Part shown: piece by piece, positions 8,448 through 30,113 of the stretch
Position numbering within the stretch: the stretch's first letter is position 1
Layout of the letters: each line of letters begins with the position of its first letter
IMG/VR virus record: IMGVR_UViG_3300012943_000019
Location: 1-38,747 of that record
Source of the DNA: a virus
Strand: one strand, 5' to 3'
DNA: 38,747 bases
Notes under the pieces: model-generated
Told to the model about the DNA's origin: nothing
The model's database searches: none
The model's input: only the letters and a program-made list of their open reading frames with translations
Position numbers and translations under genes: made by a program

Positions 8448-8467
8448 CCCTAAGAAGGAAATGAATC

Positions 8468-9739
8468 ATGGCCGATAATACCCTCGTAGTTAGTCAGATT
8501 GCATCCGAGAAGATGGTTGAGGCGCTTATCGCCGATACCGACATGGTGCTTAAAAACGCCGATAAGTCGTACAGCGCCGATTTCGAGCAGAAGCAGTTCT
8601 CGCCGTCCGGTGGCAGCATTACGCTTCCGGTAGCTGACCAGCCGCAGCTTGCCGTCCAGCAGGTGGCGTTCCGTAATGACCCGCTGGCGATGCGTGAAGT
8701 GCCGCTGGCCTATGCCAACTACACCACCGGCCTTGAAATCGGTGCGATCAACGAGACGTTTGACGCCGGTAAGGCCGTTATGTCGAACACCAACAAAGAC
8801 CGCATGAAGTCTCTGGCTACGACCATGGCGCAGATCGGCTACACGAACCTGAACAAGGGTCAGCGGTTCATCTCGTCCATTGCCCCGGGTACGAACCTGA
8901 CCACGGCGAACGACATGGGCAAGTTCAACGCTGCTCTGGCGAATATGTACGCCTCTAGCGGCCTGTACGCTGCCGTGGCCCCCGAAGACATGAGCCTGCT
9001 GGCTGGTGCTCTGGGCGGCGCGAACCAGTTCAACCCTCAGGATGCGTCTTCCAAGGCGTATGTTGACGGCACGGTTGGCCAGGTGTCCAACCTGAAAGTC
9101 TACCAGTCCACGATCCTCCCCTACCACACCAACGGCTCGGCTGCTGGCGACGGCGTTTCGGGCATGGCTCTGGCGGCGAACGTGACCTCGGGCGCTACCA
9201 GTATCACGGTTTCGGGCGGCACGGCTTCCGGCACGATCAAGGCCGGAACGATCATCTCCTTCCCCGGTAACGGCACCACGACCGGCGCGAACGAGGTTAA
9301 CCCCTTGACCCGCGCTATCATCGGTAACAAGATGGGCTTCTGTGTGGCCGCTGACACGCAGCTTGACGGCGCGGGAGCGGGTACGATCACCTTCACGCAG
9401 GCCATCTACGGCCCCGAGGCTCCGAAGTATCAGAACGTCTCGCGCCTGCCGACCACGGCGGGGACGCAGTACGTCCAGATTTACGGCCTGCCGTCCCTCA
9501 CCTACCGTCAGGCTTTCTTCTACAAGAAGGAATCGGCTCTGGCGATGGTGGGCCTCAAGCGTGCCGAACTTATCATGAACCAGAACGGTTCCGCTGATTG
9601 GGAAGGCTTGCCGATTCAGACGGCGGCGGTGGGTGACGCGAATAACCTCGTCAACATCTTCCGCATCGACTTCCTTGGCGGCGGCGCGCTCAAGCAGTAT
9701 CGCCATGTCATTCGTGCCTTCACCGCAGTTGTCAACTAA
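8468..9739 (+). CDS. Major capsid protein, P22 coat-like
   Basis: 423 aa with SD AAGGAA. Segments ...ATSITVSGG...IKAGTIISFPG... parallel P22 gp5 ...TGITVSGA...KRGDKISFAG.... Strong codon bias, shown by the stop-free codon-aligned antisense frame. Confidence 0.8.
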   Translation: MADNTLVVSQIASEKMVEALIADTDMVLKNADKSYSADFEQKQFSPSGGSITLPVADQPQLAVQQVAFRNDPLAMREVPLAYANYTTGLEIGAINETFDAGKAVMSNTNKDRMKSLATTMAQIGYTNLNKGQRFISSIAPGTNLTTANDMGKFNAALANMYASSGLYAAVAPEDMSLLAGALGGANQFNPQDASSKAYVDGTVGQVSNLKVYQSTILPYHTNGSAAGDGVSGMALAANVTSGATSITVSGGTASGTIKAGTIISFPGNGTTTGANEVNPLTRAIIGNKMGFCVAADTQLDGAGAGTITFTQAIYGPEAPKYQNVSRLPTTAGTQYVQIYGLPSLTYRQAFFYKKESALAMVGLKRAELIMNQNGSADWEGLPIQTAAVGDANNLVNIFRIDFLGGGALKQYRHVIRAFTAVVN

Positions 9740-18541: not shown

Positions 18542-20287
18542 ATGAAAAACCTGATTCTCGCCCTCGCCTTCATCCAGGCTGTCGTCTTCGGTCAGTTTGT
18601 TACCCTGCCGAAGCCCGCGTACAAGACCGCCAATATGGATTCCGTAACTGGGAACGCCTTTACGTACATCCAGCCGGATTCATCGAAGACGGTTTTGCGC
18701 TCCATGAAAATGAGCCAGCTTGCAGGGTACATCGGGGCGGCGGGGTGTAATACTGCTTGCCAGAACGCGATTGCGGATTCTCTTTCCAAAAATGGATTTT
18801 CCTTACTTCGGGCGGATTCGATTATCGCCCCCTACGTGAATACCCCTAACCTCGCCCCCTTTAACACCGAGGGCATCAAGTTCGGCATCGAAAATGGATG
18901 GCACAAGGACACGGCCATCGCTAGTCCTTTCCGCACCCTTTCGGTTGTCCTGAATGGGCCTTCCACGATCGCGGGGGGAGGCGTCTCGGACAAGTACCTG
19001 TTGCAAAACGCTGTCGCGGAGAACCTCAAGTCCGCTGGCTTCCCGGTGGTCAGCATTGTCAATGCTGGTGCAGGCGGCGAAACGATCAAGTACTACCGCG
19101 ACAACCTCATGGCGGGGCAGCTCGCCGCAAACTATGACGTGATTTATCATGAATGGGGGGTTAACGAGGGCGCAATTCTTCGCGATTCATTCCTGATCAT
19201 TTACGATCAGGTCTTGGCCGCTACCCGGGCCATTAAAACCGTGCAAGAGCAGACGATTATTATCTCGTCGCCCACCGCAACCAACGATACCCCGAACGGT
19301 CGCGATTCCGTGTGGTACTTGTCCATCAATTCCGCGCTTCGTGACCTCGCCCGCAAGTACCAATGCGTTTTCAACGATACGTGGACAAAGTACCGCATCC
19401 CCTATGTCGGCCCGTGGGATGACGCCTATGGCGACGGGCGCTCAATCCATCCCACCGACCTCCTGAATATGCACCGAGCCGGGGACATCGCCGACGCCAT
19501 CGCGGATCAGGATGCGGCCCGACTTCTCGGGTCAAGCAAGCTCCACAACACCCTTTCCACCGCCGCTACGGTGGCCGCATCGGCTGCCCCCAATAGCACG
19601 AATGGAACTGGTTACCTGAATTACCCCTCCGGACTTTCCATGTACCGTGCTCAGACGGGCGATGGCTGGGCAAACGATGGTGCTGTTTATTCGCTGAAGC
19701 AAATGGATGGCGTCAGCCTTCAATTGAACAATCAGTTCAGCGGAAAAAATCTCGCGTATCGTAGCTGTGGCGGAACGAGCTGCCAAGAATTCCAGCATAT
19801 CCTGAGCGCAGACGCGAATGGATACGTTTCCGCTATTGGCCCGGGCTCTCTCAATTGGGCTAGCGGGCAAACCGTTGTCGGTGATGCCAATGGCGCGGTT
19901 TTTTATCGCATCATAAATGCAAATTCAGGGGGCAGCGCTTACGCAAGCTGGGTGTTGCAGAATAACGTGGAGAACTACGTAGAACTCTTCGCGGGATCTT
20001 CTGCTTATAACAGCACCGCAGGGAACTATCCAAATGGTGCCTTCTTGAGAAACATGAATGGCCCTTGGGTTCTCATCGCAGGCGGCGCGACCGACGCGGA
20101 CGCAAACGCTATTTTGGACACAAATGAAACGGTCTTTAAAAAGCCGGTTGTGAACATGGAGGACGTGGAGAACCAAGCGGACACCTACCTTCCCGCCTTG
20201 GCGGATCCCACCGTGGAGCTTTATCTCTGTATCACCCCTGTGACCGGCAAGCTCCGCGCCCGTGCCGTCGCGTGTGGTACGCCGTGA
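18542..20287 (+). CDS. SGNH/GDSL-type esterase-like protein with signal-peptide-like N-terminus (second receptor-binding or depolymerase candidate)
   Basis: N-terminus MKNLILALAFIQAVVFGQ. Blocks resembling SGNH I, II, III and V: VVLNGPSTIAG, NAGAGGET, EWGVNEG, GDGRSIHPTD. Confidence 0.5.
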   Translation: MKNLILALAFIQAVVFGQFVTLPKPAYKTANMDSVTGNAFTYIQPDSSKTVLRSMKMSQLAGYIGAAGCNTACQNAIADSLSKNGFSLLRADSIIAPYVNTPNLAPFNTEGIKFGIENGWHKDTAIASPFRTLSVVLNGPSTIAGGGVSDKYLLQNAVAENLKSAGFPVVSIVNAGAGGETIKYYRDNLMAGQLAANYDVIYHEWGVNEGAILRDSFLIIYDQVLAATRAIKTVQEQTIIISSPTATNDTPNGRDSVWYLSINSALRDLARKYQCVFNDTWTKYRIPYVGPWDDAYGDGRSIHPTDLLNMHRAGDIADAIADQDAARLLGSSKLHNTLSTAATVAASAAPNSTNGTGYLNYPSGLSMYRAQTGDGWANDGAVYSLKQMDGVSLQLNNQFSGKNLAYRSCGGTSCQEFQHILSADANGYVSAIGPGSLNWASGQTVVGDANGAVFYRIINANSGGSAYASWVLQNNVENYVELFAGSSAYNSTAGNYPNGAFLRNMNGPWVLIAGGATDADANAILDTNETVFKKPVVNMEDVENQADTYLPALADPTVELYLCITPVTGKLRARAVACGTP

Positions 20288-20718
20288 TGCGCCCTGTTTT
20301 CTTAGCTGCGTTCGCTGCGCTCCTTCTTGGGGCGTGCGCGAAACACCCTTCTGTTCAGGGGGCGCAGAACGACATTGAATCCCCGCGCAAGGAGCGTCCC
20401 GCGCCCTTGCCGCGATCCCTCCCGCTTTACTTCGGGTTTGACAGCGTGGAGGTCATGGATTCCGCGTGGGCCTCTCGCCTTGCGGGATTCATGTCCAACG
20501 ACACGTCCCTGCGCCTCGTTCTGACCGGCTACACGGACACCGTGGGCCGCGCGGGCTACAACGATACCCTGAGCCAGCGCCGGGCTGAGAACACCCTTGC
20601 GGCCATCATGGCGGTGGGCACCGACGCCATGCGTATCGAAGCCCGCTCAAGAGGCGAGCGCTCCCCCACCGCAGACCCCGCCAAATCGCGCCGCGTGACG
20701 GCAGTATTCAAACAGTAG
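20287..20718 (+). CDS. OmpA/Pal-like peptidoglycan-binding lipoprotein
   Basis: ATG at 20287 overlaps the upstream stop (TGATG). Lipobox LLLGAC. OmpA_C motif LTGYTDTVGRAGYNDTLSQRRAENT...RSRGE. Confidence 0.7.
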   Translation: MRPVFLAAFAALLLGACAKHPSVQGAQNDIESPRKERPAPLPRSLPLYFGFDSVEVMDSAWASRLAGFMSNDTSLRLVLTGYTDTVGRAGYNDTLSQRRAENTLAAIMAVGTDAMRIEARSRGERSPTADPAKSRRVTAVFKQ

Positions 20719-20730
20719 AGGATTCCCCAC

Positions 20731-21150
20731 GTGGCCCCGAACAAGCAGGAAAACTGGATCTTAAAAAACTGGAAACTGCTTGCGTGGGCGGTTCCTTTAC
20801 TCGTCGCCAGCGGTGACCAGCTCATAGGCAAGGGGCTGGCCGGGAAAGCCGCTCAGAACGCCATTCAGGACGCTATGAGGCCCATAGTCGAAGAATCGGT
20901 TAAGGGTGCAAGGGCGGACATGGACACCGTCAAATTGGCTGTCCGTGACGGGTTCGGGAAACAGGAAATCCGCCTAAGCAGAATTGAGCAGGCGCTTATC
21001 AAGTTACCCGGTGGAAAGAAGGTTCTCCGCGACATCAGGCGGGAAGAACAGGAGCGCAAGGAACTGCTGGGCGACGATCCTAAGGTTCCGTTCGACCCGT
21101 CAAAAGGTATTGGGTATTCGATTCAGCACGGGATATGGGGGGCTCAATGA
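20731..21150 (+). CDS. Type-II membrane protein with coiled-coil ectodomain (i-spanin-like or holin-like)
   Basis: GTG start with AGAGGA SD. One N-terminal TM segment (WKLLAWAVPLLVASG), then a charged helical region (...IRLSRIEQALIKL...RREEQERKELL). Confidence 0.55.
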   Translation: MAPNKQENWILKNWKLLAWAVPLLVASGDQLIGKGLAGKAAQNAIQDAMRPIVEESVKGARADMDTVKLAVRDGFGKQEIRLSRIEQALIKLPGGKKVLRDIRREEQERKELLGDDPKVPFDPSKGIGYSIQHGIWGAQ

Positions 21151-21575
21151 CTGAATCCAGCCGGATATTCTACAGGAACCACGTTCTAGGCGGCTATGAA
21201 CTTAGTCGAGAATTGGTCTTACATTCTGACCTGCACCCTGAAACCCGTATCTCCATCCCCGGCGCTACTCTGGACGTAGATGGAACCCTTACCCTTTCCC
21301 CCGGCTTCCGATGGGATGGGGCGACAGGGGCTTGCGATACGAAGAATTTCATGCGAGGTTCGGCAGGGCATGACGCTATTTACAATATGCACCAGCTAGA
21401 GCAGACAATGCCGAAGGACTGGAAGAAGAAAGCCGACTCCCTCTTAAACCGTCTTTGCCGTGAGGACGGGATGAGCGCATGGCGTCGGTGGTGGGTTCGG
21501 CAGGCTATCCGCAAGGGTGGTCACGCCCGGCCTAGAGACTTGAACCCGTCCCTTGTGGAGCACGTCGCCCCATGA
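21147..21575 (+). CDS. DUF1353-like protein
   Basis: ATG at 21147 overlaps the upstream stop (ATGA). Pattern PGFRWDGATG...GHDAIY...KKADSLLNRLCREDGMSAWRRWWVRQAIRKGG fits the DUF1353 layout as I recall it. Confidence 0.55.
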   Translation: MTESSRIFYRNHVLGGYELSRELVLHSDLHPETRISIPGATLDVDGTLTLSPGFRWDGATGACDTKNFMRGSAGHDAIYNMHQLEQTMPKDWKKKADSLLNRLCREDGMSAWRRWWVRQAIRKGGHARPRDLNPSLVEHVAP

Positions 21576-21976
21576 AAATCCTTATTCAGCGCAAACCCAC
21601 TACCCCCACCTACACCGAGGGGGAGATGTTCATCAATGGTGAATGGTGGGCCATGACTTTAGAGGACACCGTGCGCAAGGGGAAGAAGGTGTACGGACAG
21701 ACCGCTATCCCGGCTGGGAAGTATAGGGTTGTCGTGGACTACTCCGAGAAGTTCCGTAAAAAGATGACCCATATCCTGAGCGTCCCCGGTTTCGAGGGAA
21801 TCCGCTTGCATCAGGGTTGCCATCCTCGGGATTCCTATGGTTGCCCTCTATTGTCGAAGCGTAGGGGCGGAACTCCCGGCACCCTGACAGCCATGAAAGC
21901 TGGAATCCTGACAGACGAACTCACCCGCCTAGTAGAACAGGCAGGGGGCGCGGAGATAGAGATTAGGAACGGGTAA
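21572..21976 (+). CDS. DUF5675-like protein; possible His/Cys cell-wall peptidase
   Basis: TEGEMFINGEWWAMTLED...IPAGKYRV...VPGFEGIRLHQGCHPRDSYGCPLL fits the DUF5675 pattern. The H-x-G...S-x-G-C tail resembles YkuD-type catalytic motifs. Confidence 0.55.
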   Translation: MKILIQRKPTTPTYTEGEMFINGEWWAMTLEDTVRKGKKVYGQTAIPAGKYRVVVDYSEKFRKKMTHILSVPGFEGIRLHQGCHPRDSYGCPLLSKRRGGTPGTLTAMKAGILTDELTRLVEQAGGAEIEIRNG

Positions 21977-22869: not shown

Positions 22870-23373
22870 TCATTGTTCATTCCCTTTCTTGGCGCGGGCC
22901 ATGGTTTGTTTTTTCTTTCTTACGCAGTCTCGAACAGCTTTATTAGCACAAATCCGACACTCGCGGCGATCTTTTCTACTTGTCAAATTGCTTCCCAATA
23001 ACGGATGCCCGTTATTGCAATGGGTTTTCAGCCTTTGATAGGAATTAATAACGCTTGCAGGAGGGTGTTTCAGTCTCCCTTTTTTAAGGGCATCGCGTAC
23101 ATTATCGCCTTGAGTTCCTGCGAAAAGGTGGTGAGGATTCACGCATGGAGGGTTATCGCAAGCATGGCATACCACAAGCCCCTCTTGAAGCGCACCGTTG
23201 TGGATTTTGTACGAAACTCGATGCGCTCTTAAGCTCCTTCCTTTAAAGAAAAATTGTCCGTACTCGCGAGCGCATCTTCGCCCATGCCATTCCCAACATT
23301 CATTTTTATCGCCGGGAGATACATTTTCCCAAAACGCCGAAACGATCCTATCGGTGACTTCGAATTCGATCAT
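22870..23373 (-). CDS. HNH endonuclease (HNH_3 type)
   Basis: ECWEWHG...YGQFFF...[12 protein letters not shown]...[27 protein letters not shown] is the classic free-standing phage HNH signature. Confidence 0.8.
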
Positions 23374-25439: not shown

Positions 25440-25936
25440 TTCCCGCCCCCGGAGGAGCGGAGAGCCCGCTGGTAAATTCGAATTAAGGCTGATGCGGCCG
25501 CGCCGTCCCCGGCCTGCGCCATCGTTTCGACGTGCTTTAAGGTTCCCCACGCCTCGCGTTCCAAGGCCAAGAGTTCCAGCGCCTCCGGGGCCACCGGCGC
25601 TACGGGGGAGGCGTACAGGGGGACGGTATACAGCTTGACGCGATCCCAGTTGTACTTTTCGCCTTCCGTTTTATCCAAGGCCGTGATAAACACGGTAGGG
25701 GTGTCCGACCGCGTCCACGCCACCACCTCCCCCTGTGGCGCAAGGGCCGCAACGTCGGAGAGGCGGACGAGGGGTTCGGTGTAGTCCGCTCGGTCTTTTT
25801 TCAGGTACTCGTTGGCGGAACCCTCGGCGTACGCCTTTGTGACAGCGGTTATTACGCCTCCACCGGATCCCTCAGGCGCCATCCACGCTACAATGTCGAG
25901 CCCTTCCAGCCCCTTCGGGTTAAATTCCTCTTTCAT
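25436..25936 (-). CDS. Hypothetical protein (166 aa)
   Basis: ORF with ATGA and GTGA coupling on its two sides. Confidence 0.6.
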   Translation of the reverse strand: MKEEFNPKGLEGLDIVAWMAPEGSGGGVITAVTKAYAEGSANEYLKKDRADYTEPLVRLSDVAALAPQGEVVAWTRSDTPTVFITALDKTEGEKYNWDRVKLYTVPLYASPVAPVAPEALELLALEREAWGTLKHVETMAQAGDGAAASALIRIYQRALRSSGGGK

Positions 25937-26436
25937 TTTTTGCCTCCCTCGGTTGATTCAATGATGTTCAGTCGGGCAAATTCGCCGTGATATTTAAGCG
26001 CCGCCTCGTTGTAGGCCATGGCCGCTTCCGTCTCGGACTTGAAATACCCTAGTGCCACACGCTGCCCGCCGCCAATTTTTATTCTGGCGCGGAACTTGTT
26101 TTCGTTTTTGGACCAGCCAACGCCTCTATACTTTGAAGTCCCATCGAGGTTTGGCTTTCGATTTCGGCAGTTCTCCGTAAGAGTGCAGAGGCGAAGGTTT
26201 GCCCTTTGATTGTCCAACTTGTCGCCGTTGATGTGGTCAACGAGGACACCGCTGGCAGCATTCAGTATGGAGCGGTGCATTAATAGATTGCGACGTCTCC
26301 CGTCTGGAACTCGTCGCCGGGCGTAGCCCTTTTCTGTTATGGTCCATTTCCATTGGTTCAGGGGTTCAAAGTCCTCGTCGTCCACCTTTACAAAGGTGTT
26401 CGGGTGCTTCGGAGTTGAAACATCGATCAGCTTCAT
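25933..26436 (-). CDS. HNH endonuclease with C-terminal AP2 DNA-binding domain
   Basis: LLMHRSIL...VDHINGDKLDNQRANLRLCTLTENCRN is the HNH part. YRGVGWSKNENKFRARI...LGYFKSETEAAMAYNEAALKYHGEFARLN is the AP2 part. Confidence 0.75.
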   Translation of the reverse strand: MKLIDVSTPKHPNTFVKVDDEDFEPLNQWKWTITEKGYARRRVPDGRRRNLLMHRSILNAASGVLVDHINGDKLDNQRANLRLCTLTENCRNRKPNLDGTSKYRGVGWSKNENKFRARIKIGGGQRVALGYFKSETEAAMAYNEAALKYHGEFARLNIIESTEGGKK

Positions 26437-26630
26437 TGCGGCCCCCGCGTCCCCGCGCCCCCGCGCTCGGAGGGAACGGGGCGGCGGTCATTCCAGTCTC
26501 GGACGGTAAACCGCTTTCCATACGCAGGGCAAAGAGCGCCATTGCACTCTACCGAAAATTCCAGCGGGGCGGGAACAATTCCGCACCAGGGACACGGCAG
26601 CAGCGCGGCGGGGGTGGTTGATTCGGTCAT
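26433..26630 (-). CDS. Lar-like zinc-ribbon protein (possible restriction alleviation)
   Basis: 65 aa. LLPCPWCG...C......C...FTVRDWNDRRP fits the PCPFCG...WNRR layout of Lar-family proteins as I recall it. Confidence 0.45.
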   Translation of the reverse strand: MTESTTPAALLPCPWCGIVPAPLEFSVECNGALCPAYGKRFTVRDWNDRRPVPSERGGAGTRGPQ

Positions 26631-27667: not shown

Positions 27668-27940
27668 TTATTTCTCCTTCTTCTGCACGGGGTAAACCCA
27701 GGTGGTGTCGTAGGTGGTGATAGCCGTGTCTCTGATGGTCAGGATCGTGCACATGGTCCCGTTTTTGGGACAAACGTGGGTATGCTTGACAACCGTGTCC
27801 ACGAAGAAATGCGTGGGTGCCGCTCGCTTGATTTCTGTCGTGATGCTATCCAATTTTGTCATTAACGGAGCAACCCCCGACGCCACAGCGGTGTCGTTCA
27901 TGGGCGCAGCCGCCAGCAGTAGGGCGAGCAGCGCGCTCAT
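27668..27940 (-). CDS. Secreted or periplasmic small protein (90 aa)
   Basis: Start moved to ATG 27940 (ATGA with the upstream stop). Signal-like N-terminus MSALLALLLAAAP. Confidence 0.5.
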   Translation of the reverse strand: MSALLALLLAAAPMNDTAVASGVAPLMTKLDSITTEIKRAAPTHFFVDTVVKHTHVCPKNGTMCTILTIRDTAITTYDTTWVYPVQKKEK

Positions 27941-28185
27941 GGCACCCACCGGGTCGTGTCGGCGCCGCAGACGTACTCCATCCCATCCGCTCCGGTGTAG
28001 TGGCAAGAGGGCTTTACAGGCTCTGTAGGGGTACAGGCAAGGAGGAAAGTGGCGCATAGGATTGCAACCCAAAGCGCAAGATGAAAACGTATCGTGGCGT
28101 CTAGTCTCTGGCAAATGCCGCCGATTACCATGTCGCTCATGACAGCAAACACCCCGAACACCACCCAATCAATCCAGTTGTTCAT
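27937..28185 (-). CDS. Two-TM small membrane protein (82 aa) with internal lipobox-like FLLAC
   Basis: TM1 WIDWVVFGVFAVMSDMVIGGI and TM2 LALWVAILCATFLLAC, followed by a Cys-containing tail. Confidence 0.6.
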   Translation of the reverse strand: MNNWIDWVVFGVFAVMSDMVIGGICQRLDATIRFHLALWVAILCATFLLACTPTEPVKPSCHYTGADGMEYVCGADTTRWVP

Positions 28186-28361
28186 TTCTTCTCCCCCAAG
28201 TGAAATCTAAGGTACGTGTTGTGCCAGTCCGCGATTACATCCGCTACTGTGGGGCGTGGGCCGTCTTTTGCCTTCTCCCATGCGCGAATTCGACGCTTTA
28301 CCTCTGAAACCGCCGCCCTGTTGTCAGCGGCATGAATCCTTGCGAAAGTTGGCTTTTTCAC
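28182..28361 (-). CDS. Hypothetical basic protein (59 aa, VKKPTFARIHAADNRAAVSEVKRRIRAWEK...)
   Basis: Not in the ORF track. GTGA overlap with the pentapeptide gene stop and ATGA overlap with the next start. Confidence 0.4.
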   Translation of the reverse strand: MKKPTFARIHAADNRAAVSEVKRRIRAWEKAKDGPRPTVADVIADWHNTYLRFHLGEKK

Positions 28362-28984
28362 AGTTTCCCCGCCTGCGCCTTGAGTTCTTCGGCCTTCTGG
28401 ATCAATTCATCAGCCTTGGCGAGAAGTTCCGATTTTGCCGGGTTGGCGTCGATCTTAATTCCGGTGATTTCCTCAAAAATATCCGCGTCGAAATTGGGAA
28501 GGGACTTTGTTTTTTCTATGTCCTCCTTCGTCGCCTTCTTCCACAAAGTAGCCCATGCCGCTTTGTAATCGTGAGTTTTCAGGTATCCATCACAAACGTA
28601 GGCTTTCGGCCACTCCTTCTTTTCTTCGGCGGTCATATCCGAGAAGCTAACCCACTCGGTAATTACGAGGTTTTGGAAAATTTCGGGAAGAAGTCCGAAA
28701 GCCTCTTCATGGGTAAGGTTCGTGTCCTTGTTGAACATTCGGGCTTTAGGGGTATCGCTGTTCCAGTAGCCGCTGTTCCAGTAGCCGCTGTTCCAGTTGC
28801 CGCTGTTCCGGTCGCCGCTGTTCCAGTTGCCGCTGTTCCGGTCGCCGCTGTTCCGGTCGCCGCTGTTCCAGTTGCCGCTGTTCCAGTTGCCGCTGTTCCG
28901 GTCGCCGCTGTTCCGGTAGCCGCTGTTCCAGTTGCCGCTGTTCCAGTTGCCCGTATTTTCGATTCCGGTATTGCCTTCTGCCAT
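28358..28984 (-). CDS. Atypical pentapeptide-repeat protein (208 aa): 13 x G-[NDY]-[WR]-N-S plus a globular C-terminal domain
   Basis: MAEGNTGIENT(GNWNS)2 GYRNS GDRNS ... (GYWNS)2 DTPKARMFNK.... SD AAGGAGG and its own sigma70-like promoter upstream. Confidence 0.85.
   Translation of the reverse strand: MAEGNTGIENTGNWNSGNWNSGYRNSGDRNSGNWNSGNWNSGDRNSGDRNSGNWNSGDRNSGNWNSGYWNSGYWNSDTPKARMFNKDTNLTHEEAFGLLPEIFQNLVITEWVSFSDMTAEEKKEWPKAYVCDGYLKTHDYKAAWATLWKKATKEDIEKTKSLPNFDADIFEEITGIKIDANPAKSELLAKADELIQKAEELKAQAGKL
28757..28951. repeat. Tandem repeat of 13 x 15 nt (gctgttccNgtNgcc), in frame within 28358..28984
   Basis: Counted unit by unit. Units differ only at two positions (a/g and a/t/c), giving 4 unit types: 6 x NW, 4 x DR, 2 x YW, 1 x YR. 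Confidence 0.95.
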
Positions 28985-29010
28985 AACGCCTCCTTGTTGG
29001 TGATGAGTAG

Positions 29011-29039
29011 AACTTAGGTTAACGGTGCACGGTTTACAA
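29011..29039 (-). promoter_or_regulatory. Sigma70-like promoter for the pentapeptide-repeat gene
   Basis: Minus-sense TTGTAA (29039..29034), 17-nt spacer, TAAGTT (29016..29011), about 25 nt upstream of the SD. Confidence 0.45.
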
Positions 29040-29089
29040 GCGATTTCTCATTTATTTTTCATCTGCCAAATTTCTTCCAAGCGCCGATT

Positions 29090-29539
29090 TTACAGACTCC
29101 AATACCCCAACGGGTCTTTTCGCCACTTCTCAATCTCGATTACAGCTTCTTCTTTGCTTCTGCAAAGGCGGGTGCCGATCCACTTCTGCCATTTCCGCTG
29201 GCTATCCGTCATTTTGCCGATTAAGGTTTTCGCCTCAATTGGCAGAACAAAACCCCATTGCGCCGGGTCGAAAATCACTAGATCAGGGAAGCCACGGACA
29301 GCGGCGGCGGCATTTATGAGGGCGTAGTTGATTGCGTTTCCATGCGCGAACCCGGCTTTAAGCAACGCGTCTGGTATGCGAAAGTACACCAACCCTTCCC
29401 TATCCAAGTAGTCCTCAATGGACTGCTGGATAATGGCCTCAGGCGTCTTGGCGCGGGCTACAGGCTTCTTGGCCTTCATGGTGGGCGCAAGGGCCAGCCC
29501 GGCGAACCTTGGGTTTACCTTGCCGATCTTTAGAGGCAT
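29090..29539 (-). CDS. VRR-NUC domain nuclease
   Basis: EAIIQQSIEDYL...GFPDLVIF......LPIEAKTLIGKMTDSQRKW matches the PD-(D/E)xK VRR-NUC pattern. Confidence 0.7.
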   Translation of the reverse strand: MPLKIGKVNPRFAGLALAPTMKAKKPVARAKTPEAIIQQSIEDYLDREGLVYFRIPDALLKAGFAHGNAINYALINAAAAVRGFPDLVIFDPAQWGFVLPIEAKTLIGKMTDSQRKWQKWIGTRLCRSKEEAVIEIEKWRKDPLGYWSL

Positions 29540-29590
29540 TGTTTCTCCTTTAGCATTTCCAAGGCCCGAACGTCTAGGGGTTTGAGGACG

Positions 29591-29959
29591 TTAGTCATTA
29601 GGCTTTCCATCAAGGCGTTCTACAAGGTCTGCTATGGCAATATGCGCTGCCAAATTGAAATTACCCAAAGGGAGTTTTATCCCATACTTCCAAAGCCTCT
29701 TGGCTTGAATAAGGATGGCCTGAGATTCTTCATAATCCGAAAATGACTGGATATGGGCGTGTCCGTAATTGTCGTTTGCCCTGCCGTCATTTTTTCTGAA
29801 AGATTTCAGCGAATGATACATCGTCACATAAACAAGCGTTCGGCCAACCTTCTCAATTGTTACGATAGGTGGGACGAAATCGTTTGACCGGCTACGGTTC
29901 TCGTTTATGTCGCGCAAATAAACCTGCTGCCCAACGGCCCATTTTTCTTTATCACTCAT
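29591..29959 (-). CDS. Hypothetical protein (122 aa)
   Basis: Start moved to ATG 29959 (SD GGAG). Confidence 0.55.
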   Translation of the reverse strand: MSDKEKWAVGQQVYLRDINENRSRSNDFVPPIVTIEKVGRTLVYVTMYHSLKSFRKNDGRANDNYGHAHIQSFSDYEESQAILIQAKRLWKYGIKLPLGNFNLAAHIAIADLVERLDGKPND

Positions 29960-30113
29960 TTTCTGCTCCATTCTTGGCTGCCCCCCGCCTTCGGCCACGG
30001 GTGGGCCGGTATGTCCTCTAGCTTATTCCCGTTTGCTAGGTAGCAGCCAAACAAGGCTTTTCTAACAACTTCTGAGAGTATAGGAGCTATGTGTTGGGAG
30101 GTGTCCGTAGCGG

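Follow-up and report, generated by a model that had tools for sequence, protein, structure and literature searches.

The 38,747-nt stretch of virus DNA analysed here (positions 1 to 38,747 of IMG/VR virus record IMGVR_UViG_3300012943_000019; hereafter, the window) carries on its minus strand a gene (28358..28984) whose 208-residue product consists of a Pentapeptide_2-type repeat array, a conserved C-terminal domain and a C-terminal helix. The array turns over by concerted evolution through gain and loss of whole repeat units—an interpretation that we regard as well supported—and keeps its diversity at just two residues per unit. With moderate confidence, we favour the reading that this is a cytoplasmic, non-structural, early-region phage protein from a very large family, in which a tunable array is mounted on a docking domain and the whole serves host takeover or counter-defence.

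Thirteen perfect 15-nt units lie head to tail at 28757..28951 on the minus strand (residues 12–76), as delimited by Tandem Repeats Finder (28756..28951, period 15, 13.1 copies, score 308), a pattern search and parsing of units; the first two methods agree on the thirteen back-to-back copies reported in the initial annotation, which had been made from the sequence alone. A 24-nt two-unit pattern gave 13 matches, all of them in the array, against an expectation of zero from 100 shuffles, and the same search of the whole window found no copies of the array unit elsewhere. Read on the coding strand, all 13 units share the pattern GGC-[A/G/T]AC-[T/C]GG-AAC-AGC, encoding G-[N/D/Y]-[W/R]-N-S, so that the variable sites are the first bases of two codons only. 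The resulting unit types (NW six times, DR four times, YW twice and YR once) match exactly the two variable nucleotides per unit and the four residue pairs described initially. The array is preceded by two degenerate leading units (N-T-G-I-E and N-T-; residues 5–11, 28952..28972, minus strand), identified by translation and unit parsing, and the protein contains 14 N-x-G motifs, all in register, with the five-residue period unbroken.

Comparison with close relatives shows that the flanking domains evolve far more slowly than the length and di-residue content of the array. Over 14.9 kb, the window shares 99.94% identity with L001, an ENA metagenome contig of 38,675 bp (ERZ27256383), and the sole indel between the two is an exact 90 nt, or six units, leaving seven units in the contig against 13 in the window; the breakpoint falls between two identical NW units (YR-DR-NW-YW-YW at the 7-unit junction), and the 13-unit and 7-unit contigs come from separate sources (JGI and ENA). 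When full-length members were compared within ten clusters at 90% identity, lengths in the same cluster were mostly multiples of five amino acids apart (350/355, 220/210/190/240, 346/361, 330/305, 306/321/296 and 313/318 aa); a few pairs did not differ by exact multiples of five, and at least some of these differ at their termini. For one pair, of 312 and 287 aa, the sequences confirmed a five-unit difference inside the array. The cultured Rheinheimera phages Barba16S and Barba19A carry 25 and 26 units, respectively, with different unit content, and their flanks (the DUF7666 domain and the C-terminal domain) show a single-residue difference. A search of IMG/VR for further unit-number variants of the window protein found no relative above 46% identity.

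Codon usage points the same way. Within an array, scaffold codons are often uniform, and they differ from gene to gene: AAC-AGC-GGC 12 times in the window, AAC-AGC-GGA 25 times in locus L004, AAT-AGC-GGC 23–24 times in L005, AAC-TCT-GGC 14 times in L003 and AAT-ACT-GGT 24 times in the Barba phages. Among 79 arrays of at least ten units, the modal glycine codon accounted for a fraction of 0.79 of glycines inside the array, compared with 0.53 outside it, and for at least 0.9 inside the array in 35 of the 79. Residues at the first variable position follow the order D>N>Y>H and those at the second R>W>L>Y>F, with differences falling mostly at first codon bases in arrays examined as DNA. The di-residue alphabet of the examined arrays comprises DR, YR, NW, DW, NR and others, and pairing is non-random, D-R, N-W and Y-R being enriched.

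Whole 15-nt units are gained or lost through slippage or unequal recombination between identical units, and, because the unit length is a multiple of three, slippage alters protein length without a frameshift. Two proposals of the initial annotation are thereby upheld: recent expansion or concerted evolution, by the 99.94%-identical contig, the codon uniformity and the difference between Barba phages; and in-frame length variation, by unit-number polymorphism among near-identical contigs, within 90%-identity clusters and between cultured phages.

We also considered whether the array might be the target of a diversity-generating retroelement and rejected this, because the window contains no template repeat, no reverse transcriptase was found among its annotated genes (not every open reading frame (ORF) was scanned) and one of the two variable sites is T/C rather than adenine-specific. 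As a separate observation, four relatives (P0272, P0298, P0302 and P0312; 62–111 aa, on contigs of 14–45 kb) are C-domain-only ORFs near-identical to other family members, each starting at an internal methionine just after, or inside, the start of the C-terminal domain. This suggests that in these contigs the upstream array has been frameshifted, interrupted or mis-assembled, whether as an artefact or as real on/off variation.

Although the repeat had been described as atypical, the protein is, on sequence comparison, a member of known families. It matches the Pfam family PF01469 (Pentapeptide_2, XNXGX) in two stretches at 49.3 bits (E = 4.5e-13), above the gathering threshold of 26.4 bits, and residues 5–185 align to positions 104–286 of the 297-position profile of PHROG 14105, annotated as function unknown (E = 3.2e-49). 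Apart from a sub-threshold match to DUF6883, PF01469 was the only family returned by the Pfam scan of the window protein, and scans against NCBIfam and PADLOC gave no match. The initial description did hold in placing the repeat, which lacks a central Leu/Phe, outside the canonical pentapeptide type: PF00805 gave no match to the window protein even at E ≤ 10. The identical protein sequence is present in the public collection, on a JGI/IMG contig of 38,747 bp. A search of ~5.8 billion proteins recovered homologues in 2009 clusters, and an exhaustive search with a profile of the C-terminal domain alone recovered 1664 clusters at 50% identity, 1093 of them with E ≤ 1e-10. When 40 C-terminal domains were scanned against Pfam at E ≤ 1, no recurrent family emerged, the DUF6883 match being a single occurrence. 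Literature searches found no paper on the function of this protein family.

Arrays in the family run from 8 to 36 units, with C-domain-only and two-unit members also occurring, and N, S and G are at least 90% conserved in each repeat column. The short form, to which the window protein belongs, consists of array and C-terminal domain, often with a C-terminal tail; the long form places an N-terminal DUF7666 domain (PF24703) ahead of both, another form carries PF27195 (‘YdhT_N’), and rarer forms have an extra N-terminal A1S_2505 domain or a tandem duplication of the whole module. Some long forms (P0194, P0247, P0269 and P0202) match NF049995, ‘A1S_2505 family phage non-structural protein’, at E ~1e-34 to 1e-38; in P0202, a further ~110 aa that match no family extend the C-terminus. 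Among 113 sequences, an N-terminal domain without a tail occurred in 50, a tail without an N-terminal domain in 35, neither in 15 and both in none, the tail being either a helix of the form ELL.KA.EL...L or a segment of the IEIGGK.Y type. The helix tail of the window protein is common to many short-form members, and the window example is ordinary for its family.

Structure prediction with AlphaFold2, using a 60-sequence alignment for the window protein, left the array (residues 1–70) without secondary structure at pLDDT 27–40 and folded the C-terminal domain (~residues 80–181) as an alpha/beta domain at pLDDT 89–97, followed by a helix at residues 182–207. From the alignment and the model together, the conserved alpha/beta domain spans ~105 residues (77–181; 28442..28756, minus strand), with the motifs FNK, W..S.MT.EEK, GYLKT..YK.AW and LPNFDA.IFEEITGI in the alignment; the predicted helix corresponds to an amphipathic tail (residues 182–208, ...SELLAKADELIQKAEELKAQAGKL; 28361..28441, minus strand). 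A second run, on the long-form relative P0004 with 59 DUF7666-containing sequences, gave two confident domains (residues 1–97 and 235–334, pLDDT >90) separated by a 27-unit array at pLDDT ~25 and again without strands. A globular C-terminal domain had been annotated from the outset, and the AlphaFold2 confidence (pLDDT ~90–97) bears this out.

For the C-terminal domain, structural comparison identified no relative of known function. A fold search of the PDB with the window model gave no match with E < 1, PDB sequence searches with full-length and C-domain profiles returned noise only, and the only good matches in a viral structure library were two phage proteins, of which the named one is annotated ‘Pentapeptide’. 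In the alignment, conservation falls mainly on hydrophobic or structural residues (F, W, M, L, P and G, plus N and K), a pattern that suggests binding rather than catalysis as the role of the domain.

The window is a phage genome of ~38.7 kb that encodes a P22-like portal; its large terminase has 48% identity to the terminases of Synechococcus phages. Scans for tRNAs and Rfam families gave no match in it. The repeat gene sits in a minus-strand early block devoted to replication and recombination, downstream of genes for a replisome organiser, a Prim-Pol/DnaB protein, a ProQ_C-like protein and a VRR-NUC-like protein, and upstream of small ORFs followed by HNH/AP2 genes. The ProQ_C-like product, two genes upstream (29591..29998, minus strand), matches the phage ProQ C-terminal-like family PF24203 at E = 1.9e-10. 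A similar early location was seen in Roseobacter phage CRP-811, in three metagenomic phages (with neighbours that include YqaJ/SSB/NinG, ERF, or CI/Ant/Bro/methylase genes) and in the Rheinheimera Barba phages. When the motif LPNFD..F..I[TS]GI was turned into a degenerate DNA pattern, it matched at least 120 genome contigs, with assignments to Opitutales, Clostridia, Melainabacteria, Paenibacillus, Erysipelothrix, Snowella, Bacteroidota and some archaeal bins, and the family also occurs in phages or prophages assigned to cyanobacteria and proteobacteria. Clustering of the neighbours of the family gene at 120 loci, taken from genome contigs, IMG/VR and phage records and including the window, revealed no conserved partner gene: the commonest neighbour occurred in 10 of the 120 loci, and SSB, CI-like regulators, an SNF2-type helicase, a DnaC-like loader, VRR-NUC, Sak4 and an HD hydrolase, the most frequent, each occurred in at most that number.

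The N-terminus of the protein is hydrophilic (MAEGNTGIENTG), its GRAVY value is −1.04, and reading the protein revealed no signal-peptide-like or membrane-spanning stretch, although no signal-peptide predictor was run. Taken together, the early context, the lack of a conserved partner, the hydrophilic N-terminus and the GRAVY value lead us to regard the gene as a stand-alone accessory gene of the replication/recombination region with a cytoplasmic, non-structural product. The early-module context of all annotated loci examined likewise sets aside an ordinary virion protein—the alternative that the initial annotation had named to its own proposal—in favour of a non-virion accessory protein.

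Within our favoured reading, the C-terminal domain would be a constant docking or effector module acting on a conserved partner, while the array would offer a charge-neutral, repetitive interaction surface or spacer, studded with aromatic, Arg, Asp and Asn residues, whose length and composition could be quickly re-tuned. The likely setting would be that of an accessory to host takeover or counter-defence during early infection; an anti-defence or host-takeover role, as proposed initially, is possible. Several points weigh against this reading. Searches of the PDB, the viral structure library, Pfam, NCBIfam and PADLOC gave the C-terminal domain no informative functional homology, and the spread of the family over many phyla would also fit a phage-internal role in replication or recombination rather than an arms race. 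The low pLDDT of the array may stem from the poor alignability of repeats instead of genuine disorder, and the strict conservation of N, S/T and G across the family argues for some regular structure. Lastly, the difference between 13 and 7 units lies between two metagenome assemblies and could be due to assembly collapse.

A less probable explanation is that the array is a disordered, elastic linker of the sticker-spacer kind, its Trp, Tyr and Arg residues being the stickers and Gly, Ser and Asn the spacers between them. Such a linker would set the distance between modules or, aided by the helix, would drive multivalent self-association (condensates) around replication or recombination proteins. 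It would account for the pLDDT of ~25–40 and the lack of secondary structure in two runs, for a composition of aromatic, acidic and basic residues with a net charge near zero (per unit, ~0.54 aromatic, 0.41 acidic and 0.38 basic residues), for array lengths that range from 8 to 36 units alongside C-domain-only and two-unit members, for the position of the long-form array between two folded domains and for the restriction of the tail helix to short forms. Against it, a disordered linker would not normally keep N, S/T and G near-invariant or hold a five-residue register unbroken across phyla, repeat alignment can lower pLDDT artefactually, and Trp-rich disordered regions are uncommon.

The initial annotation had proposed a solenoid whose surface would resemble DNA or a polysaccharide. 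Developed as a regular beta-solenoid, like the fold predicted for mycobacterial PPE-MPTR repeats, it would inhibit DNA-targeting host enzymes as a DNA mimic or anti-restriction factor; we now consider this model improbable. In its favour are the PF01469 match above threshold, the invariance of N, S/T and G at a strict five-residue period in ~90% of arrays and the location of the gene in the early region amid DNA-metabolism genes. According to a published comparison (PMC11795689), four predictors agree on a beta-solenoid for PF01469, and AlphaFold2 tends to over-predict solenoids for repeats; in the light of both points, the missing solenoid in our models—two alignment-based runs that left the array at pLDDT 25–40 without strands—counts against the proposal, but not decisively. 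Nor do unit types show the periodicity at lag 4 (20 residues) that a quadrilateral helix of 20-residue coils would bring, a weak lag-3 signal being all that was detected. In MPTR repeats, the residue between N and G is often hydrophobic and would supply a core; here it is polar (S or T). Known DNA mimics are strongly acidic, whereas these arrays are charge-balanced, with 6 acidic and 5 basic residues in the window array and a mean net charge of −0.7 (sd 3.4) across 113 family arrays; an acidic DNA mimic, and with it the DNA-like charged surface, therefore does not fit.

More speculative still, and in our judgement very unlikely, is the idea that the array is a minimal modular recognition device in which the variable di-residue of each unit would read one position of a repetitive or polymeric ligand; a glycan, a repeat protein and single-stranded nucleic acid are examples. 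The first position (D/N/Y/H) might serve hydrogen bonding and the second (R/W/L/Y/F/Q) stacking, while slippage and unit shuffling would re-programme specificity. The genetic logic would resemble that of the TAL-effector, PUF and PPR codes, with a unit ~7-fold shorter, and this TAL-effector-like pattern is all that points to such a device. Two features are compatible with it: the variable positions are diverse although scaffold codons often show uniformity even at synonymous sites, and the di-residue alphabet is small, with non-random pairing (D-R, N-W and Y-R).

A virion, cell-wall-binding or structural protein, with the repeats as fibre or spacer, can be virtually dismissed: repeat arrays are common in tail fibres, and weak, low-ranked matches in the viral structure library (E > 1) include tail proteins, but in the window and at every annotated locus examined the gene belongs to a module of early, replication or regulatory genes and not to the structural genes, the protein has a hydrophilic N-terminus and no signal-peptide-like or membrane-spanning stretch was seen in it (no predictor run), and a ‘phage non-structural protein’ domain is fused to some of its relatives.

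Among known systems, the window protein shares the five-residue N-x-G period with the mycobacterial PPE-MPTR proteins (PF01469) and exceeds the gathering threshold of their hidden Markov model, but it has neither a PPE domain nor a mycobacterial or ESX secretion context, lying instead in a phage early module. In the phage family, N and G are invariably separated by a polar residue (S or T) and the other positions are hypervariable (D/N/Y/H and R/W/L/Y/F), and, in contrast to the solenoid predicted for PF01469, AlphaFold2 gave no strands here. Closer relatives are found in PHROG 14105 and among GenBank proteins annotated ‘pentapeptide’, which have in common with it the array, the C-terminal domain and the early-region location; they include gp041 of the Rheinheimera Barba phages, gp20 of Roseobacter phage CRP-811 and a hypothetical protein of Clostridioides phage AR1086-1. 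Relative to the PHROG 14105 profile, the window protein lacks the first ~100 positions, presumably the DUF7666 head, and has the C-terminal helix instead.

Canonical PF00805 proteins (Qnr, MfpA and AlbG), DNA mimics that fold as right-handed quadrilateral beta-helices, are likewise built from tandem five-residue repeats; their consensus is A[D/N]LXX, whereas the window units read G-[NDY]-[WR]-N-S, with no central Leu/Phe and, by composition, no acidic surface. The two repeat types are distinct, because Barba phages carry both as separate genes. We conclude, from sequence, that the window protein is neither a canonical Qnr/MfpA-type pentapeptide protein nor a PPE protein. At the Barba16S locus (L133; MK719726.1, 18860–26429), the PF01469-type gene gp041 lies two genes upstream of the PF00805 gene gp043; a macro-domain gene, gp030, lies ~5 kb upstream.

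Two looser parallels concern genetic logic. TAL-effector repeats also combine near-identical DNA units with two adjacent variable residues drawn from a small alphabet; this is an analogy from general knowledge only, as the unit here is 5 aa rather than 34, no helical hairpin is predicted and the likeness does not imply nucleic-acid binding. Coding tandem-repeat contingency loci undergo in-frame slippage, with unit number varying between near-identical genomes, as here. Classical contingency loci mostly encode bacterial surface proteins or act as on/off switches, whereas this gene encodes a cytoplasmic phage early protein.

For this window, the first reading is corrected in that the repeat type was already catalogued and the solenoid and DNA-mimic ideas are unsupported. 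The family stands out for a confidently folded C-terminal domain without a structural relative and as one of the clearest cases among phage genes of concerted evolution with two hypervariable residues per unit. Its size, unmatched C-domain fold, hypervariable di-residue arrays and occurrence in cultured phage make it a good testable problem, for which the Rheinheimera Barba phages provide a cultured test system. Once the partner was identified, thousands of early phage genes now labelled ‘hypothetical’ would gain a function, and it would become clear whether in-frame repeat slippage generally re-tunes phage proteins that interact with the host.

The expression signals and immediate surroundings of the gene were considered in relation to its initial description as a promoter-equipped moron. 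Its ATG start and its stop codon (28358..28360, minus strand) were taken from the ORF list, and a Shine-Dalgarno sequence, GGAGG, lies 4 nt before the ATG (28989..28993, minus strand; direct sequence reading). The promoter named initially, TTGTAA (29034..29039) and TAAGTT (29011..29016) on the minus strand (29011..29039 in all), is present to the letter, as is its 17-nt spacer, but its status as a promoter did not hold up: it agrees with the sigma-70 consensus at 7 of 12 positions (the host’s promoter rules may differ), which is no better than chance, and a consensus scan of 27800..29700 found neither a promoter nor a minus-strand terminator. The gap to the upstream VRR-NUC-like gene is 105 nt; downstream, the stop codon of the repeat gene overlaps the GTG start of the next ORF (GTGA). 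The GC content of the gene is 0.53, compared with ~0.48–0.61 across the window, and shows no local break. The weak promoter match, the lack of a terminator or GC shift and the overlap with the next ORF all speak against a moron with its own promoter; the gene thus shows none of the three marks of a moron (own promoter, terminator, deviant composition), which is not decisive.

The downstream GTG-initiated ORF (59 aa; 28182..28361, minus strand) has no PHROG match and was left uncalled in the 99.94%-identical contig. On the opposite strand, an ORF of 253 aa with AVPVA repeats (28256..29017, plus strand) is an antisense shadow of the repeat gene rather than a real gene, because homology is found exclusively in the minus-strand frame.

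Elsewhere in the window, the early block holds two 167-aa HNH-endonuclease genes on the minus strand, at 25933..26436 (also with an AP2 match) and at 22870..23373, and a short, G+C-rich tandem repeat (GCCCCCGC, 3.2 copies; 26441..26466) lies just upstream of the start of the HNH/AP2 gene. The end of the structural module (18542..21976, plus strand) encodes a 581-aa protein with a GDSL-lipase domain, an OmpA-like protein (~143 aa) and a DUF5675 protein, labels that were transferred from the Pfam annotation of the near-identical contig L001. A minus-strand ORF at 8450..9706 is an antisense shadow lying opposite a 423-aa plus-strand ORF (8468..9739) that has no family match.

A final observation concerns the DUF7666 head of the long-form relatives (PF24703; residues 1–97 of P0004), which is absent from the window protein. 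Searching PDB sequences with a DUF7666 profile gave no match; in a fold search, the best PDB match to the confident DUF7666 model was the rifampin ADP-ribosyltransferase Arr (9iaf; E 0.012, probability 0.96, TM-score 0.36), with a RES toxin and PARP16/PARP3 among the lower-ranked matches. His38, Tyr50 and Glu60 (in the order H-Y-E), together with Cys13, Cys33 and Cys40, are invariant or at least 90% conserved, and DUF7666 may, to judge from the model, be a small ADP-ribosyltransferase-like domain.

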